Assembly: GCA_963839425.1 (NCBI GenBank)
Contig: CAWIUX010000005.1
Span: 258,991 to 322,990, forward strand
Reading direction: 5' to 3'
From: an uncultured Actinomycetes bacterium
GTDB lineage: Bacteria > Actinomycetota > Thermoleophilia > Gaiellales > Gaiellaceae
DNA: 64,000 nt
Shown here in pieces: positions 40,704 through 49,889 of the stretch. The notes beneath the pieces were generated by a model. It made no database searches. It saw only the letters and a program-made list of their open reading frames with translations, and was not told the origin of the DNA. A program made the translations under genes and the position numbers. Position 1 is the first letter of the stretch, and every line of letters begins with the position of its first letter.

Positions 40704-43276
40704 TGAGCACCCAGCACGAGACCGACACCGTCAAGGAGATCCGCAGCGAGTACAAGTACGGCTTCTCGAACCCGGACGAGGCGAAGGACTACTTCTTCAA
40801 GTCCGGGCGCGGGCTCTCGCCCGAGCTCGTCGCGGCGATCTCGGCGCACAAGAACGAGCCCGAGTGGATGCTCAAGTTCCGGCTCAAGTCGCTCGACTAC
40901 TTCAACGCGCGCCCGCTCCCGACGTGGGGCGGCAACGTCGCCGAGATCGACTTCGACAACATCTTCTACTACATCAAGCCGACCGAGAAGCAGGTCGACA
41001 AGTGGGAGGACCTGCCCGCCGACATCCTCGACACGTGGGACAAGCTGGGCATCCCGGAGGCGGAGAAGAAGTACCTCGCCGGCGTCGGCGCCCAGTACGA
41101 GTCGGAGGTCGTCTACCACAAGCTCCAGGCCGATCTCGAGGCGAAGGGCGTCATCTTCCTCGACATGGACTCGGCCCTGCGCGACCACGAGGACATCGTC
41201 AAGCAGCACATCGGGCACGATCATCCCGCAGAACGACAACAAGTTCGCGGCGCTCAACTCGGCCGTCTGGTCGGGCGGCTCGTTCATCTACGTGCCGCCG
41301 GGCGTGCGCGATCGAGATGCCGCTCCAGGCCTACTTCCGCATCAACGCCGAGAACATGGGCCAGTTCGAGCGGACGCTGATCATCGTCGACGAGGACGCC
41401 TACGTGCACTACGTGGAGGGCTGCCATCTCGGCGGGCATCGATGGTGCGCGTGCGCGAGCGGCGAGAAGCCGATCGAGAGCAATCGAGATCGGCGACGAG
41501 GTCGTCACGCACGAGGGCCGGTTCCGACGCGTTCGAGACGCGATGCAGCGCCGCTTCGAAGGTCCCGATCTTCCGCATGACGTTCGCCGGTGAGCGGGTA
41601 TCGCTCGCTTGCGGTCACACCGCGGCACCCGTTCCTCGTCGCGACGCGAGATCGCCCGCGCGCCCACAACCGCACCTTCTCGGCGGAGTGGAAGGAGGCT
41701 TGGGAGCTCCGGGTCGGGGACTATCTCGCCGTGCCGGCGGCGATCGACGTCGAGCGCGACGCACGACCGTTCACCGCGAGGAGGTTCTCGTCGGCGCAGG
41801 GCGCCACGCTCCCGCGGCCGAGCAGGTCGAGCGTCGAGCTCTCTCCCGATGTTTGCCGCGTGATGGGTCTCTATGTTGCGGAAGGCTCGGTGAGCGCCGA
41901 ACACGCTCGTACCGTCGCGTTCGACAGCGTCGACGCACGAGGAGCATCTGCGCGAGCTCGTCGAGGACGTGATCGAGGGATCGTTCGGGCTGGAGCCCTG
42001 GACGTACGAGTACGCCGAGCCAGCGCGAAGGGCGCTCAGGTGCGGTTACTCGTCGCGTCCGTGCAGCCCGCTTCTTCGCACAGACCTTCGGGCGCACGCA
42101 CGCCGAGAAGCTGCCGAGTACCCGATCATGGATGCTTCGGGCTCGGAGACGTCGAAGGCGGAGCTGCTTCGTCAGACGGGTCTGTACGACGGAGAGGGAA
42201 GCTACTACCGCGAGCTCGATCTGTACCGGATCAATCAGACGAACCAGGACGTCGCCCAGCGCCTCCGCGAGCTCTTGCTCTCGCTCGGCATCCGCGCTAT
42301 CGCTGAGCCGATCGTCGCGGCACGGCGCCTCGGCGGGATATCTGGCAGCTCGCGATCTGCAAGCTGGACAACGTGGTGTTCGAGCGCACCGTGCTCGGCG
42401 CGACTCAGACCGAACCGCGACACCAGAAGGCCGACGTCGTGATCGCGGACGGGTACTGCTGGATGCCGATCCGGTCGATCGAGGACGATCCAGGCCAACT
42501 GCACCGTCTACAACCTGAGCGTCGAGGAGGACGAAAGCTACGTCTGCGAAGGTGTGGTCTCGCACAACTGCACGGCGCCGATCTACTCCTCCGACTCGCT
42601 CCACTCGGCGGTCGTCGAGATCATCGTCAAGCCGCGCGGGCGGTGCCGCTACACGACGATCCAGAACTGGTCGAACAACGTCTACAACCTCGTCACCAAG
42701 CGCGCCGTCGCATATCAGGACGCGACAATGGAGTGGGTGGACGGCAATCTCGGCTCGAAGCTGACGATGAAGTATCCGGCGATCTGGCTGATGGGCGACC
42801 GCGCCCACGGCGAGGTGCTCTCGATCGCCTTCGCGGGCAAGGGCCAGCACCAGGACGCGGGCGGCAAGTGCGTCCACGTCGCGCCGAACACGACCAGCGT
42901 GATCACCTCGAAGTCGATCTCGAAGGACGGCGGCCGCGCCGGCTACCGCGGGCTGCTCGAGGTGGCGAAGGGCGCGCACGGCGCGCGCTCGAAGGTCGTC
43001 TGCGACGCGCTGATCCTCGACGAGGAGTCGCGCTCCGACACCTATCCGTACATCCGGATCGACGAGAGCGACGTCACGATCGGCCACGAGGCGACCGTCT
43101 CGAAGATCGGCGAGGAGCAGCTCTTCTACCTGATGAGCCGCGGCCTCTCGGAGGCAGAGGCGAGCGCGATGATCGTCTCCGGCTTCGTCGAGCCGATCAC
43201 GAAGGAGCTGCCGCTCGAGTACGCCGTCGAGATGAACCGGCTGATCCTGCTGCAGATGGAGGGCTCGGTTGGATAG
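40703..43276 (+). pseudogene. sufB: Fe-S cluster assembly protein SufB, intein-containing, with frame switches in the N-extein (near 41217 and 41310) and inside the intein
   Basis: N-extein ...[19 protein letters not shown], and C-extein [20 protein letters not shown]...[20 protein letters not shown]...[10 protein letters not shown]... Confidence 0.85.
41422..42568 (+). mobile_element. SufB intein with a LAGLIDADG homing-endonuclease domain (about 380 codons; internally frame-disrupted)
   Basis: Starts with Cys after VEG. Block [21 protein letters not shown] motifs GLYVAEGS and GLYDGEGS. C-terminal [21 protein letters not shown] is followed by the +1 Cys of CTAP. Confidence 0.75.
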
Positions 43277-44440
43277 AGCCGCTGCGGCGGCTCGCTACCA
43301 GGAGCTTCCGGTACCGGAAACGACCGAGGAGTCCTGGCGCTTCACCGATCTCAAGGGCTTCGACCCGGAGTCCTTCTCGGCGAACGGGGCGACGACGGTC
43401 GCGGACGCGCCCGCGCTGCTCGAGCTCGACGCCGCCGGCGTCGCGCACGTCTCCGAGGGCGGGCTCGAGATCGTCTCGGCGCCCGAGGGCGTCCGCTTCG
43501 AGGCGCTGACCGACCACCCGCTGCTCGGCGAGCTCGTCGGCACGGGCGAGAAGTTCGCCGCCCACAACGCGGCCCGCTGGGTGAACGGGCTGCTCGTGCA
43601 CGTGCCCAAGGGCGTCGTGCTGGAGAAGCCCCTCTACGTCCGCGTCGCGAACGCGGTGGAGGGCGGCTCGCTCTTCTGGCGGCTGCTGATCGTCGCCGAG
43701 CCGCAGAGCCGCTTCACGCGTGATCGAGGAGTACGCCTCGGCCGACCCCGCGCTCGCCGGCTACTCGAACGCGGCGGTCGAGATCTTCGTCGAGGGAGGC
43801 GCGAAGGTCGAGTACGTCTCGCGTGCAGAGCCTCTCGCGCGAGACGTGGCACTTCGCGTCGCACCACGCGCGCGTCGGCCGCGACGCCGAGCTCGACTGG
43901 GTCGCGGGCGGCTTCGGCTCGAAGAAGGGGAAGATCCGGATCCAGAACGACCTCGCCGGCCCCGGCGCCACCTCGCGCGTCACCGGCGCGTACTTCGCCG
44001 ACGGGACGCAGCACCTCGACTACGACACCTTCCAGGAGCACATCGCTCCGAACACGACCTCCGACTTCGCCTTCAAGGGCGCGCTTCGCGACGACTCGAG
44101 CGCCGTCTGGCGCGGGATGATCCGCGTCGAGAAGGACGCGCAGAAGACGAACGCGTACCAGGAGAACCGCAGCCTGCTGCTCTCGAAGACCGCCCACGCC
44201 GACTCGATCCCGGGCCTCGAGATCCTGGCCAACGACGTGCGCTGCACCCACGGTGCGACGCTCGGCCAGGTCGACCGCGAGCAGCTCTTCTACCTGATGG
44301 CGCGCGGCCTGCCGCGCAGCGAGGCCGAGCGCCTGATCGTCCGCGGCTTCTTCCAGGACGTGCTCGACCGGATCGAGCTGGTGCCGGTGCGCGAAGCGCT
44401 CGGCGCCGCGCTCGAAGCGCGCATTCCGCAGGCAAGCTAA
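43269..44440 (+). pseudogene. sufD: Fe-S cluster assembly protein SufD with 2 frame switches (near 43715 and 43820)
   Basis: Pieces ...SWRFTDLKGF...LYVRVANAVEGGSLFWRLLIVAEPQSRF / IEEYASADPALAGYSNAAVEIFVEGGAKVEYVS / QSLSRETWHFASHHARVGRDAELDW...RGFFQDVLDRI lie in three frames. Confidence 0.8.
44114..44433 (+). repeat. Direct repeat copy A (3' end of intact sufD)
   Basis: 320 bp. Matches 46438-46757 with 5 substitutions, at 44155, 44239, 44254, 44341 and 44392. Confidence 0.9.
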
Positions 44441-46289
44441 GAGCGGCGGTTTCGCGGCTCGTCGCTGACGACGCGGTCGACGCGGCCGCGTCGGAGGAAG
44501 AGCCGGCTCACGCCGAGCGTGATCCCGGAGACCACCCACAGCGGCAGCGCGAGCACCAGGGGCAGGAACATCGAGGCGATCACGTCGGTCGGCAGGCGCA
44601 GGAGCGGCTCTTCGCCATCGTCCCGAAGTAGGCGCCGACGACGAGGAGCGGCACGCCGATGGCGAGGGCGACCCTGCGCGCGGGCCACTCCGCCCGGAGC
44701 GCGTCCGACAGCGCCTCCCACTGCCACGCGACGAGCGCCGTTCCCGCCGTGAGCACGGCGAGCACCGCGACGTACGGCGCCCAGCGGACACCGACCCGGA
44801 GCGCGAGTGGCTTCAGGAACTTCAGCCGCGCCGCCTCGAGGGAGCGCAGGTAGTACGGCGAGCGCTCCGGGTCCCCGATAGCGTCTCGAAGACGGCCGAA
44901 CGCCCAACGCGAGGCGCCGGGCGCGAGCGCGTTTTGCTGCAAGGCGCCGATGCCATCGGCGTGCTCCACCTCGAACGCTGTCAGCTTGTAGCCGTCCAGC
45001 ATCAGCGAGTGCGCCTCGATCTCGCTGAAGCTGTCGAGATCGGTCCGGACGTGCGCCAGCGCCTCCTGCACCGCGAGCGCGACGCCGAAGGCGACGCAGT
45101 CGACCGCGGGTGGGTCGGCCGGATACGGGGACGCGTCGGAGACGGGGACGCCTTTGCGCCGCAGCGGCTTCTCGACCACGTTCTCGAGCCCCTTGCGCAG
45201 GTGCATCAGCGCCGTCGAGCGGGCGCACGACGCGGACGAGCTGTTCGTCGCGGATCCGGTCGCCGTAGATCGAGCTCGAGCGCAGACCGACGGCGGGGAT
45301 GCGCGTCGGGGGCTTCTCGAGGTCAGGCATCTGCCCCGAGGCGTCGCTCACGAGCGCGTGCGAGCAGTCGGTGTCGAAGAGCGCCTGCACGCCCTGGTTG
45401 TCGTGGACGCCGCCGTCGACGAGCTCGACGACGATCCCGTCGTAGAGGTCGTGGATCGCGAGCGGGTGGAACAGCATCGGGACGCACGCGGACGCGGCGA
45501 CGGCGAGCCCGAGCGGGAAGTCCCGCTGACGCTCGACGATCGCCTCGTGATCGGGCTGCGGGCCGAAGTACCCTGCTCGAGGCGGCGGTTCTTGTCCACG
45601 TCGACGCAGCACCTGACGCGCATGCAGGCTCGCCGGCAGCGGCTCGCCCATCCGCACCGCCTCAAAGCGCCAGTTGTGGCCGGTGTTGAGCGTGGTCGCG
45701 TTGACGATCAGGATCGGCACCTTGGCGCAGCGGGAGCCGTTGCCCTCGTCGGGCCGGAAGCCGTCGCCGTCGCCGGCGGGCTTGATCAGCAGCTCGCGCA
45801 GCTCCACCTGTCTCTTGACGCCGAACCGCTTGCGCGGGCGCTCGTACTGCGCCTCGACGCAGCCGTCGGCATCGCGCTCCCAAGCAGGCTGGTAGAGCAG
45901 GCGGTCGTACAGGTCGCCGATCCGGTCGCTGCGCGAGTAGGCGGGGCCGGCCATCCGGACGTTCTTGAAGAGGTTCGCGAACGCGCGCGCGCGCACGTTC
46001 TTGCGCGTTGCCGCGAAGAAGTCGCGCTCGAGCCGCGGACGATCTCGACGTAGTCCGCGTTCGTGATTTCCGCGTCCGTCTTCCGCTCCAAGAGCTTCTT
46101 GACGTGGATGTAGTAGAGCGCACCGACGATCGAGCCGCCCGAGACGGTGGAGATCACCTCGACGCGCGGCAGGATGCCGGTCTCGGCGAGCCGCGCGAGG
46201 ACGCCAATGTGGAAGAAGGACGCGCGAAAGCCGCCGCCGGAGAGGGCGAGGCCGACCTTTGGCTCGGGGACTGCTGCGGACTCGCTCAC
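44437..46289 (-). pseudogene. Patatin-like phospholipase with a C-terminal transmembrane extension (at least 3 frame switches)
   Basis: GLALSGGGFRASFFHIG oxyanion motif, TVSGGS nucleophile motif and DGGVHDNQG Asp motif. C-terminal hydrophobic helices (YVAVLAVLTAGTALVAW, ALAIGVPLLVVGAYF, MFLPLVLALPLWVVSGI). GTG start with a GGAGG RBS. Confidence 0.75.
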
Positions 46290-46437
46290 GGAAACCTCCG
46301 TCTGAGGCGCGGGCCGCAGAGCCGACGCGGGAACGGCGACATCGTCGCCGACGGCTCAGCGAATTACAAGCGCCTCAGTCGCGCCAGCGGCGCCGCCTCG
46401 GCCGCGTCTCCGCGCCCTCGCCGAGCGAGCCGCCTCG

Positions 46438-46757
46438 GGGATGATCCGCGTCGAGAAGGACGCGCAGAAGACGAACGCCTACCAGGAGAACCGCAGCCTG
46501 CTGCTCTCGAAGACCGCCCACGCCGACTCGATCCCGGGCCTCGAGATCCTGGCCAACGACGTCCGCTGCACCCACGGCGCGACGCTCGGCCAGGTCGACC
46601 GCGAGCAGCTCTTCTACCTGATGGCGCGCGGCCTGCCGCGCAGCGAGGCCGAGCGCCTGATCGTGCGCGGCTTCTTCCAGGACGTGCTCGACCGGATCGA
46701 GCTGGTGCCGGTGCGGGAAGCGCTCGGCGCCGCGCTCGAAGCGCGCATTCCGCAGGC
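46438..46757 (+). repeat. Direct repeat copy B (orphan sufD 3' fragment)
   Basis: See copy A. The offset between copies is 2324 bp. Confidence 0.9.
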
Positions 46758-46761
46758 GTAG
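46441..46761 (+). pseudogene. Orphan 3' fragment of sufD (last 106 codons)
   Basis: Encodes MIRVEKDAQKTNAYQENRS...ALEARIPQA*, identical in protein to the SufD C-terminus except for the last residue. Confidence 0.8.
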
Positions 46762-46765
46762 CCGC

Positions 46766-47143
46766 CTACGCCTGCGGGCGGAGCCCGACGAGTGCCGCGA
46801 CGGCCTCCTCGAGCTCGGTGCAGACCTCGTCCGCGACGTACACCGTCCACGGGTGCGGCGGTGTGCCGCCCGTGTAGGCGACGACGAGCTTCCCGCGCTC
46901 GTGCGCGTACCAGGCCTCCATCGCCGTCCCCTCGTCCGGCGCGGTGAACGACGCGAGCACGGCGTCGCAGGAGTCGATCTCGACGAGGTCGGCCTCGACG
47001 ATCTCGGCCTCGTGGCCCACCGTCTGGCCGCGGAAGTCCCGCCGCATCGGGTCGACGGGCTCCAGTCCGCTCTCCCGGAGCAGCGCCTCGCGCCGGCGGT
47101 ACTCGTCGGCGTAGGGCGGCCCGGCGAGGTAGACGCGCCTCAT
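46766..47143 (-). CDS. Nucleoside 2-deoxyribosyltransferase-like / dNMP N-glycosidase-like small Rossmann protein
   Basis: 126 aa. VYLAGPPY N-terminal motif and DEGTAMEAWYA catalytic-Glu motif. Confidence 0.6.
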   Translation of the reverse strand: MRRVYLAGPPYADEYRRREALLRESGLEPVDPMRRDFRGQTVGHEAEIVEADLVEIDSCDAVLASFTAPDEGTAMEAWYAHERGKLVVAYTGGTPPHPWTVYVADEVCTELEEAVAALVGLRPQA

Positions 47144-47164
47144 GAGGGCGTACAGTACGGCTAG

Positions 47165-47539
47165 AGCAAGGAGCCGCCGGAGTTCGTCGCGCTCGGCCAC
47201 GCCGGCTCGGAGCACTACGCCGGGCTGGAGACGTTCCCCAACCCGGGTGTCGTGCACGTGGAGATGACGAGCGACGAGCTCGCGGCGATCTGCCCGGTCA
47301 CCGGCCAGCCGGACCTCTACGTCGCGACGATCGAGTACGAGCCGCAGGATCTCTGCCTCGAGTCGAAGTCGCTGAAGCTGTACCTGGCCACGTTCCGGAA
47401 CGACGGGCACTTCTGCGAGGCGCTCGCCGTCAGGATCCGCGACGACGTCGCCGCGGCGCTCGGGCTGGGGCCGGAGCGGTCAGCGTGGACGCTCGAGCAG
47501 AAGGCCCGCGGCGGGATCACGATCGTCGCCACGGCGTAG
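47165..47539 (+). CDS. queF: NADPH-dependent 7-cyano-7-deazaguanine (preQ0) reductase QueF, type I; no canonical start for the conserved N-terminus
   Basis: LETFPNP...CPVTGQPD...ESKSLKLYL...FRN.GHFCE motifs. An in-frame stop lies at 47162. The first ATG/GTG/TTG is GTG 47252, downstream of the conserved N-terminal residues. Confidence 0.75.
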   Translation, partial: SKEPPEFVALGHAGSEHYAGLETFPNPGVVHVEMTSDELAAICPVTGQPDLYVATIEYEPQDLCLESKSLKLYLATFRNDGHFCEALAVRIRDDVAAALGLGPERSAWTLEQKARGGITIVATA

Positions 47540-47571
47540 CCTCCGGTACGACGTATGGTATGATGTATGGC

Positions 47572-47798
47572 ATGGTCAAGACGACCGTGTATCTCCCGGA
47601 AGAGCTGAAGGCGCGAGTCGAGCGCGCGGCGGCGGCTCAGGGGACGTCGGAGGCCGAGGTGATCCGCTCCGCGATCGAGCAGTTCACGGCGCCCGCCAGC
47701 ATCCCCGGCCTCGCCTTCCGCTCTTCGACACCCTTGGGGATCCCGGCCTCTCCGAGCGCGTCGATGAAGCTCTGGCAGAGGGCTTCGGCCGGGATTGA
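47572..47798 (+). pseudogene. vapB: Ribbon-helix-helix (CopG/VapB-type) antitoxin, frame switch near 47700
   Basis: MVKTTVYLPEELKARVERAAAAQGTSEAEVIRSAIEQF. The tail RPRLPLFDTLGDPGLSERVDEALAEGFGRD* is recovered in another frame. Confidence 0.7.
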
Positions 47799-48215
47799 CG
47801 CTCGTCCTCGACACGAGCGGGCTGTGCAGCATTGACCTTCGATGAACCTGCGCATGCTGCGGCGCGCGATGCCCTCGCGTCGGCGCCGGGGCCGCTGCTC
47901 CTTCGCCCTTCGTGCTCGCCGAGCTCGACTACCTGCTGCTCACGTCCCACCGCGGCGTGACCGCAGAGTCGAGTTTCTCGAGGAGGTCGCCGGCGGCAGC
48001 TACGAGCTTGCGACGTTCTCGGCGGCGATGTCGCTGCCGCCCGCGGTGTCGTCGACAGCTACCGCGATCTCGGCATCGGCCTCGCGGACGCCTCGATCGT
48101 CGTCCTCGCCGAGCGATACGGCACGCGCCGGATTCTGACGCTCGACGAGCGGCACTTCCGCGCGCTGCGCGCTTCCGACGGGAGCGCCTTCGTCCTGCTC
48201 CCGGCCGACGCGTAG
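47795..48215 (+). pseudogene. vapC: PIN-domain toxin VapC, at least 3 frame switches
   Basis: The TTG start overlaps the vapB stop (TTGA). Pieces LTLVLDTSGL, VLAELDYLL, FLEEVAGGSYELATFSAA and GLADASIVVLAERYGTRRILTLDERHFRAL lie in different frames. Confidence 0.7.
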
Positions 48216-48218
48216 ACG

Positions 48219-49889
48219 TTACGCGCGCACGAGCGGCTTGTACCTGATCCGATGGGGCTCCAGGGCCTCCGGGCCCCGGGTCTCCTTCACCCACTCGGCG
48301 TACTCCGCATACGACCCCTCGAACCACGTCGCCTGCGAGTCGCCCTCGAAGGCGAGCATGTGGGTCGCGATCCGGTCGAGGAACCAGCGGTCGTGTGAGA
48401 TCACGACGGCGCAGCCGGCGAAGTCGAGCAGCCCGTCCTCGAGCGCGCGCAGCGTGTCCACGTCGAGGTCGTTCGTCGGCTCGTCGAGCAGCAGCAGGTT
48501 GCCGCCGCTCCGCAGCACCTTCGCGAGGTGGACGCGGTTGCGCTCGCCGCCGGAGAGATCCTTGACGCGCTTCTGCTGGTCGGGGCCGCGGAAGTTGAAC
48601 CAGGAGACGTACTGGCGCGAGTTGAGCTCCCGCTGGCCGAGCTCGATCGTGTCGAGGCCGCCGGAGATCTCCTTCCAGACGGTGCTCGCGGGGTCGAGCG
48701 ACTCGCGGCTCTGGTCGACGTAGGCGAGCTGGACGGTGTCGCCGACGCGGAGCACGCCTGCGTCGGGCTGCTCCTCGCCCGCGATCAGGCGGAAGAGGGT
48801 CGTCTTGCCGGCGCCGTTCGCGCCGATCACGCCGATGATCCCGTTCGGCGGCAGCGAGAACGTCAGGTCCTCGAACAGAAGGCGGTCGCCGAAGCCCTTC
48901 GCGAGGCCCTCGGCCTCGACCACGACGTCGCCGAGCCGCGGGCCGGGCGGGATGTGGAGCTCGACCTTGTCGAGCCTCACGTTGGCCTCTGCGGCCAGCA
49001 TGCGCTCGTAGGCGCCGAGCCGGGCCTTCGATTTGTCGTGGCGGGCCTTCGGGCTCATCCGCACCCACTCGAGCTCGCGCGCGAGCGTGCGCCGGTGCGC
49101 CGACTCCTGCTTCTCCTCGACTGCGAGCCGGGCCTGCTTCTGCTCGAGCCACGACGAGTAGTTGCCCTGGTACGGGATCCCCTTGCCGCGGTCGAGCTCG
49201 AGGATCCAGCCGGCGACGTTGTCGAGGAAGTAGCGGTCGTGCGTGACGGCGACGACGGTGCCCTTGTACGCCTCGAGGAAGCGCTCGAGCCAGGCGACCG
49301 ACTCCGCGTCGAGGTGGTTCGTCGGCTCGTCGAGCAGGAGCAGGTCGGGGGAGGAGAGGAGCTGCCGGCAGAGCGCGACGCGCCGCCGCTCGCCGCCCGA
49401 GAGCGTCGTCACGTCCCGGTCGCCGTCGGGGACGCGCAGGGCGTCCATCGCCCGGTCGAGGGTCGCGTCGAGGCTCCAGGCGTCGTGCCGGTCGATCTGC
49501 TCCTGCACCTTGCCCTGCTCGGCGAGGAGCGCGTCGAAGTCGGCGTCGGGCTCGGCGAACGCGGTGGAGATCGCGTTGAAGCGGTCGAGCAGGTCGCGCA
49601 GCGGCCGCACGCCGTCCTCGACGTTGCCGCGCACGTCCTTGCCGGGGTCGAGCTCGGGCTCCTGCGGCAGGAAGCCGACCGACGCGCCGGGGGCGAGCTC
49701 GGCGATCCCGCTCGAGGGCTCCTCGAGCCCGGCCATGATCCGCAGCAGCGTCGACTTGCCGGCGCCGTTCGGCCCGAGCACGCCGATCTTCGCGCCCGGC
49801 AGGAACGAGAGCGAGATGTTCGCGAGCACCTGCCGGTCCGAGCCGTAGAACTTGTCGGCCCGGTACATCGTGAACACGTAGTCGCTCAC
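48219..49889 (-). CDS. ettA: ABC-F ATPase, energy-dependent translational throttle EttA
   Basis: 556 aa from GTG 49889. Two ABC cassettes (GPNGAGKST / GANGAGKTT; LSGGERRR / LSGGERNR). N-terminus is YVFTMYRADKFYG. Confidence 0.9.
   Translation of the reverse strand: MSDYVFTMYRADKFYGSDRQVLANISLSFLPGAKIGVLGPNGAGKSTLLRIMAGLEEPSSGIAELAPGASVGFLPQEPELDPGKDVRGNVEDGVRPLRDLLDRFNAISTAFAEPDADFDALLAEQGKVQEQIDRHDAWSLDATLDRAMDALRVPDGDRDVTTLSGGERRRVALCRQLLSSPDLLLLDEPTNHLDAESVAWLERFLEAYKGTVVAVTHDRYFLDNVAGWILELDRGKGIPYQGNYSSWLEQKQARLAVEEKQESAHRRTLARELEWVRMSPKARHDKSKARLGAYERMLAAEANVRLDKVELHIPPGPRLGDVVVEAEGLAKGFGDRLLFEDLTFSLPPNGIIGVIGANGAGKTTLFRLIAGEEQPDAGVLRVGDTVQLAYVDQSRESLDPASTVWKEISGGLDTIELGQRELNSRQYVSWFNFRGPDQQKRVKDLSGGERNRVHLAKVLRSGGNLLLLDEPTNDLDVDTLRALEDGLLDFAGCAVVISHDRWFLDRIATHMLAFEGDSQATWFEGSYAEYAEWVKETRGPEALEPHRIRYKPLVRA

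Follow-up and report, generated by a model that had tools for sequence, protein, structure and literature searches.

How does an essential gene come to be followed by a second copy of its own 3' end, with another gene lodged between the two? The question is raised by a 64,000-nt stretch of an uncultured actinobacterial contig (CAWIUX010000005.1; this whole stretch is the window hereafter), which relatives of its sufD gene assign to the Gaiellaceae (Thermoleophilia) and in which the last 106 codons of sufD occur twice, on either side of a gene for a patatin-like phospholipase. By comparing the window with related genomes and metagenome contigs, we argue here that the patatin unit is an insertion. 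Our best reading, to which we give roughly an even chance, is that recombination through sufD homology with the DNA of a close relative brought this unit in.

A repeat finder and pairwise alignment place the two copies in direct orientation on the forward strand, at 44114-44433 (copy A) and 46438-46757 (copy B), each 320 bp long and with a start-to-start offset of 2324 bp. The alignment is gapless with five mismatches (at 44155, 44239, 44254, 44341 and 44392 in the numbering of copy A; 98.4% identity), and identity is lost abruptly on both sides (44113/46437, left; 44434/46758, right). Read in the sufD frame, all five mismatches are synonymous third-position changes (GCG/GCC Ala, GTG/GTC Val, GGT/GGC Gly, GTC/GTG Val and CGC/CGG Arg), four of them exchanges between G and C. 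Synonymous changes make up ~25% of all possible single-base changes in the 106 repeat codons, which puts the probability of five out of five by chance at ~0.001. The differences are scattered across all 320 bp, dividing the repeat into identical runs of 41, 83, 14, 86, 50 and 41 nt, and the window holds no other long near-identical repeat.

Copy A forms the last 106 codons of the functional gene, to the second base of its final Ala codon, after which the left junction and a derived sufD tail (44434-44440, forward strand) supply a different third base for this Ala (GCA, where copy B has GCG), one extra codon, for Ser, and a new TAA stop; the C-terminus accordingly reads QAS* in copy A and QA* in copy B. 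The segment unique to the interior (44434-46437, 2004 bp) consists of a minus-strand patatin-like open reading frame (ORF) and a further 148 bp, and the stop of the patatin gene (CTA on the forward strand, 44437-44439) overlaps the sufD stop of copy A (TAA, 44438-44440). The first-pass annotation of this stretch had already described the repeat with its offset, five third-position synonymous mismatches, the diverging QAS* and QA* ends, an interior holding only the patatin gene and its 148-bp upstream region, and overlapping stop codons. This description held in full: the repeat was recovered by both repeat finder and alignment, the mismatches were silent at all five positions, the two ends diverged as described, the interior gene matched the patatin family (Pfam PF01734) and the two stops shared bases.

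The uninterrupted form of the locus is found in relatives. Our comparison rests on L001, the closest species representative; L113, a JGI contig with 95.5% nt identity in sufD; L147-L150, independent short-read contigs that are 96.8% identical to the window over sufB-sufD; and L151, the cultured type strain of Gaiella occulta. In each of these, sufD is followed directly by a nucleoside 2-deoxyribosyltransferase-family gene (ndt) and then queF, with neither a patatin gene nor a second sufD end, and each is collinear with window positions 43293-44113 fused to 46438-47540; relatives in which sufD adjoins the gene at 46766 without patatin, as the first-pass annotation had envisaged, therefore do exist. 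More widely, a patatin homologue within reach of sufD, or a second sufD end, occurs in 0 of 80 Gaiellaceae species representatives and in 0 of 62 metagenome contigs that carry this sufD segment. In all relatives sufD ends in ...IPQA and a stop, like copy B, and QAS* is unique to copy A. As judged from these alignments, copy B is the copy that holds the native downstream junction, and the junction of copy A is derived. Taken together, the empty site in relatives, the native end and hairpin of copy B (see below) and the QAS* end of copy A lead us to conclude that the patatin unit is an insertion. Shorter repeats of the sufD end located 3' of sufD in relatives, which might have marked hidden attachment sites, amounted only to chance matches of 15-25 nt.

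Copy B is thus the orphan sufD 3' end. Its ORF (46441-46761) is intact, takes an internal Met as its start and has the amino-acid sequence of copy A, the left boundary of the copy lying 3 nt ahead of this in-frame ATG; no ribosome-binding site is recognisable ahead of 46441, and we treat copy B as a presumably non-functional leftover. At its downstream end lies a perfect 12-bp inverted repeat (46750-46777; CCGCAGGCGTAG-ccgc-CTACGCCTGCGG) made from the converging ends of copy B and the next gene. Both copy B and this convergent deoxyribosyltransferase-family gene end in PQA*, written with the same 12 nt, which creates the inverted repeat with its 4-nt loop, a terminator-like hairpin. L147 and Gaiella occulta have an imperfect version of the inverted repeat, and the homology between copies A and B terminates within its left arm.

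The question then becomes whether copies A and B are two alleles or a gene and its decaying duplicate. The five variant sites spell CGCGC in the outgroups L147-L151 and CGCCC in L113, as against GGTCC in copy A and CCCGG in copy B. Polarised by these outgroups, about three changes fall on copy A (44155, 44254 and 44341) and two on copy B (44239 + 2324 and 44392 + 2324), all of them silent. The divergence of sufD between lineages looks much the same: all 15 differences from L147 over 606 nt fall at third positions and are synonymous, nine of them being exchanges between C and G, and relative to L113, 16 of 17 differing codons are synonymous. This shared signature suggests that the differences between A and B accrued in a working sufD, in two genomes, and supports the view that the copies are two alleles joined, not a decaying local duplicate. 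A neutral copy B would be expected to gather ~4 times as many changes as the constrained copy A, three quarters of them non-synonymous, and the rough joint probability of the observed pattern under this expectation, ~0.004, is indicative only. The silent changes on both copies and the L147/L113 signature therefore favour the first-pass annotation in its preference for a related but distinct lineage over a decaying duplicate; a duplication with non-synonymous decay of copy B, which would have spoken for the latter, was not found among ~150 related loci. We also considered a recombination breakpoint at 44114, where sliding identity to L113 and L001 gave no clear step.

From the observed repeat, empty site, native and derived junctions and allele-like differences we infer both a recombination route and a direction of transfer. 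We posit that the original chromosome ran from sufD straight into the deoxyribosyltransferase gene, and that a 2,324-bp unit was added, comprising a sufD 3' end, the patatin-like phospholipase gene and its 148-bp upstream region. The incoming DNA would have come from a closely related Gaiella lineage, ~1.6% diverged in sufD, and would have paired with the resident sufD through their common 3' end. The host-like composition of the insert (70.9% GC versus 71.1% for the window) likewise suggests that the donor was a similar high-GC actinobacterium. Integration could then have been of Campbell type, a circularised fragment entering by a single crossover, or could have combined one homologous join in sufD with one illegitimate join at 46437/46438. 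As a result, copy A would now complete the essential sufD with a slightly altered end (QAS*), and the resident 3' end would have been stranded behind the cassette as copy B, still joined to its native terminator-like hairpin and neighbours. RecA-dependent loss of the cassette, with restoration of a single sufD, should be possible through the repeat's identical stretches of 41-86 nt. The two routes appear to fit the geometry equally well, and the layout would also be compatible with the remnant of a site-specific element. The single-crossover proposal of the first-pass annotation is thus upheld as to geometry and empty site, whereas no circle was found, the 2004 bp hold no plasmid, integrase or transposase function, ~150 loci and protein searches gave no lineage with sufD next to patatin, and other routes account for the locus just as well.

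Several observations weigh against recombination with a relative's DNA. The adjacency of sufD and patatin expected of the donor was not found in the 80 genomes, in the 62 metagenome contigs or around the closest homologues of patatin, a thin sampling that makes this weak evidence. The 46437/46438 junction has no match in JGI metagenomes, the circular junction was not found, and the 2004-bp insert holds no gene for replication, mobilisation, an integrase, a transposase or a recombinase. The patatin ORF ends 3 nt from one junction and the boundary of copy B lies 3 nt before an ATG, neither of which is predicted by random recombination. The contig carries many 1-nt assembly indels, densest in accessory pieces (the intein, the patatin gene and the toxin-antitoxin module), which suggests low or strain-specific read support for them. 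Finally, the allele statistics rest on five sites, and the polarisation at three of these depends on variable outgroups.

The same reading can be carried further, to a recombinase-free 2.3-kb cassette that moves between Gaiella strains by host homologous recombination, brings its own replacement sufD 3' end and leaves as a circle through the 320-bp repeats; we consider such a cassette decidedly unlikely. A variant, which is pure speculation, would have the cassette enter while a break cut by the LAGLIDADG homing endonuclease of a SufB intein was being repaired, the donor being copied through sufD and patatin and the exchange closed by end joining. The sufB gene indeed contains a 1147-bp insertion relative to L147, L148 and L151 (41421-42567, forward strand), which starts with Cys, ends in ...VVSHN|C and matches the Pfam families Intein_splicing and LAGLIDADG_3; these predicted features mark it as an intein of SufB that carries a homing endonuclease, and 2.7 kb separate it from the duplication downstream. 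A relative of this intein is present in two relatives only (L016 and L065), a distribution that fits a mobile intein, and as assembled it contains several frameshifts.

Any reading of this locus has to reckon with the quality of the assembly. Compared with Illumina-based relatives, eight of eight indels between 39198 and 43822 are single-base insertions in the window, none of them in a homopolymer; alignment to L148 reveals five frame-breaking deletions of 1-2 nt within 330 bp of the RHH/PIN module (47697-48022); and a crude frame-switch scan counts ~59 frameshifts over the 64 kb, patchily distributed and worst at 20-29 kb. Indels are densest in the sufB intein, the patatin gene and the RHH/PIN module, with none in the ABC-F gene. 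This pattern points to a low-coverage or unpolished long-read assembly and suggests a strain mixture with thin read support for accessory segments. Because the essential sufB and sufD are broken as well, and because the corrected patatin is full length, we infer that the frameshifts are sequencing errors, not decay. Exact protein look-up with the copy B ORF, ndt and the ABC-F protein (with two starts) retrieved no conspecific sequence on record. The duplication itself might then be false, an error-prone long-read assembly having set two strains in tandem, one with allele A and patatin and the other with allele B and no patatin. To this possibility we assign a minor but appreciable probability, since the window carries dozens of 1-nt indels, in sufB and sufD included, which are densest in the strain-variable pieces, as expected where fewer reads support them; copies A and B differ exactly as co-occurring strain alleles do; and the tandem arrangement appears in no other data set, the structure resting on one noisy contig. 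However, 46437/46438 joins non-homologous sequence, and mis-threading through shared sequence cannot make such a junction; a chimeric read formed at random would, we think, be most unlikely to return to this very locus 2.3 kb off; and there is no second repeat of this kind in 64 kb. An apparent shift at the junction, noisy sequence giving way to clean, would have been a sign of a chimeric contig but was not upheld, being weakened by the five further frame-breaking indels at 47697-48022 in the L148 alignment.

If the duplication is real, the same layout could also have been left by a site-specific integrative element that used the sufD 3' end as its attachment site, supplied a replacement 3' end and later lost its integrase and most else by deletion, with patatin as the surviving cargo. 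This is unlikely in our judgement, even though the arrangement is that of e14 in icd, where the gene is made whole by the copy brought in and the displaced 3' fragment, differing from it mostly at silent sites, is found at the opposite end, and even though the repeat stops at the stop of the gene, as expected if the coding part alone was kept. Neither the 2004 bp nor the adjoining DNA holds an integrase or other element gene, the neighbours being ndt, queF, RHH/PIN and ABC-F; a short identical core with divergent arms is lacking, the five differences being distributed along all 320 bp; viral contigs yielded neither sufD fragments nor patatin relatives; and no integrase is among the 25 families listed, of 80 matched, for the genes between sufD and ABC-F in 21 relatives, single-protein families standing outside this list. 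An in-situ duplicative insertion, in which repair, template switching or a staggered break copied 320 bp of sufD along with patatin, would likewise give the layout observed, as the first-pass annotation had pointed out. The two copies would then have been identical at first, and copy B would have stayed silent-only through chance, gene conversion or use of its 106-aa ORF. Copy B is intact and begins 3 nt before an in-frame ATG, and with only two changes on it, both would be synonymous by chance with a probability of ~0.06. Set against this are two changes in B versus three in A with no non-synonymous change on either, for which the rough joint probability is the ~0.004 given above, and a third-position G-C signature that is one of selection-filtered coding divergence; a ribosome-binding site before 46441 is not recognisable either. 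The layout proposed in the first-pass annotation thus stands and the decay of a local duplicate is disfavoured, so that we regard in-situ duplication as very unlikely. A free-standing family of 106-aa SufD C-terminal proteins was considered and rejected: the database has many such entries, but they are calls cut short by contig edges (L145) or long-read frameshifts (L146), and there is no real small-protein family behind them. A transposon or insertion sequence was also rejected, as there is no transposase, there are no terminal inverted repeats beyond those expected by chance in GC-rich DNA, and the duplication is 320 bp long and non-identical.

The genes involved are ordinary in themselves. 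The gene order is sufC, sufB, sufD, patatin (minus strand), the copy B end of sufD, ndt (minus strand), queF, the RHH/PIN module and an EttA-like ABC-F gene (minus strand). The complete sufD, ending in copy A, spans 43269-44440 on the forward strand, and its frame-corrected protein matches SUFBD_core (PF01458) with E=6.4e-83; its position in a sufC-sufB-sufD operon, in an order kept in relatives, agrees with its assignment as SufD. As assembled it carries two 1-nt insertions relative to Illumina-based relatives, at 43719 and 43822, each an added C in the context CG^GTG, and these are the only gaps in sufD in the alignment to L147/L148, to which sufB-sufD is 96.8% identical. In the window, as in L147, sufB and sufD have an 8-nt overlap, whereas in several relatives (L002-L005 and others; 8853 to 10001 in L002) ~1.1 kb lies between them, marking the sufB-sufD gap as another variable point of the operon. 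Downstream, ndt (46766-47143, minus strand; PF05014) is the native convergent neighbour of sufD, and homologues 88-92% identical adjoin sufD directly in Gaiella occulta (88%) and in the short-read contigs.

The patatin-like phospholipase gene (44437-46289, minus strand; PF01734, E=5.5e-18, 66.3 bits versus a cut-off of 27.7) encodes ~615-619 aa from a GTG start with GGAGG 7 nt upstream, and three membrane segments are predicted at its C-terminus. As assembled it has at least five frameshifts, near 46035, 45622, 45571, 45230 and 44605; the frame-corrected protein aligns end to end with homologues of 600-630 aa, the best of them (P0001) at 67% identity. The catalytic residues G18-G20/R22 (GGGxR), S53 (SGGSIVG, a GxSxG variant) and D293-G294-G295 (DGG) are invariant among six homologues. 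We suggest that the gene, which has its own GGAGG/GTG start, probably encodes a membrane-anchored patatin-like lipase. Its family is large and common in Thermoleophilia and other soil bacteria, and the closest homologues sit in other, unrelated genomic contexts. No PADLOC match to an anti-phage defence effector was obtained for P0001, the closest intact homologue; no relatives of the gene were found on viral contigs, and on plasmids we found only distant homologues, at ≤44% identity, on Bacillus megaplasmids. The 148-bp region upstream of patatin (46290-46437), which at its outer end meets copy B in the new non-homologous junction, has no Rfam match to a non-coding RNA and, in a scan that covers actinobacterial promoter types poorly, no sigma-70-type promoter match; beyond low-complexity GC-rich noise it resembles neither relatives nor any other part of the window.

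The insertion falls in an interval of variable content. Among Gaiellaceae relatives, anything between 32 bp (L017) and 9.8 kb (L004) separates the sufD stop from the conserved EttA-like ABC-F gene, the counterpart in the window being 44440-48222, and by this comparison of gene content the interval is a spot of frequent gene gain and loss. Its cargo in relatives is ordinary, including MFS transporters, AAA ATPases, DUF480, haem peroxidases and P450. L147 and L148 carry a 372-aa gene between the RHH/PIN module and queF that the window lacks. The module itself (47485-48135, forward strand) comprises an RHH (CopG-type) ORF and a 98-aa ORF that correspond to the RHH_1 and PIN toxin-antitoxin pair of L147/L148; it is frame-broken in the window and absent from L001. 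At ~47160-47180 (forward strand), the site of the queF ATG (TATGAGC in L113) reads CTAGAGC in the window and is followed by a 3-nt deletion, so that the first in-frame start is a GTG at 47252; this change may reflect either an assembly error or a damaged queF.

We see the locus as one more case of a type of recombination scar already known, with an assembly artefact as a live rival. If sequencing reads confirm it, the locus would be a natural example of a single accessory gene entering beside an essential gene and leaving that gene unbroken, with a datable scar, in the form of two sufD alleles 1.6% apart, and a built-in route of loss. We know of no work on gene transfer in Gaiellales, a barely studied soil lineage, and the sufD/ABC-F interval is now marked as a variable spot in Gaiellaceae. 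If the structure is instead an artefact, it would serve as a warning that strain mixtures in noisy long-read assemblies can mimic acquired cassettes, silent-only divergence included.

Comparison with known systems places the locus among several that it resembles in part. False haplotypic duplications set two allelic versions in tandem beside a structural difference between haplotypes, usually at contig joins or gaps; unlike these, the present locus lies in unbroken sequence, with a specific join of non-homologous DNA as its junction. Campbell-type integration, or insertion-duplication, leaves direct repeats flanking the insert, each running into one native flank, and can be reverted by recombination between the repeats. 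The locus shares with it the flanking direct repeats, the uninterrupted site in relatives and the run of each repeat into one native flank, and differs in that no plasmid backbone or circular form was found. Homology-facilitated illegitimate recombination is known from naturally competent species and from E. coli conjugation, though to our knowledge not from Gaiellales, and its outcomes usually replace or delete recipient DNA and do not duplicate the anchor. Here the sufD 3' side is homologous and the 46437/46438 junction is not, as in that process, by which foreign DNA enters through one homologous anchor and one illegitimate join (PMC3240628). In E. coli K-12, the e14 element in icd supplies a replacement 3' end that keeps the gene functional, the original 163 bp being left as the icdC fragment, and most differences between the icd and icdC copies are silent or conservative, the insert being removed when the two recombine (PMC13626634, PMC6379469). 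Unlike e14, a 15-kb prophage with its own integrase and site-specific excision, the insert described here is 2 kb long, carries one cargo gene and has no recombinase, and its repeat is longer than the 163 bp of icd (320 bp) and evenly 98.4% identical. In the essential arrangement, however, the two agree: as in icd, one copy of the 3' end, here copy A, completes the target gene, and the other, copy B, is the displaced 3' fragment at the opposite end of the insert.

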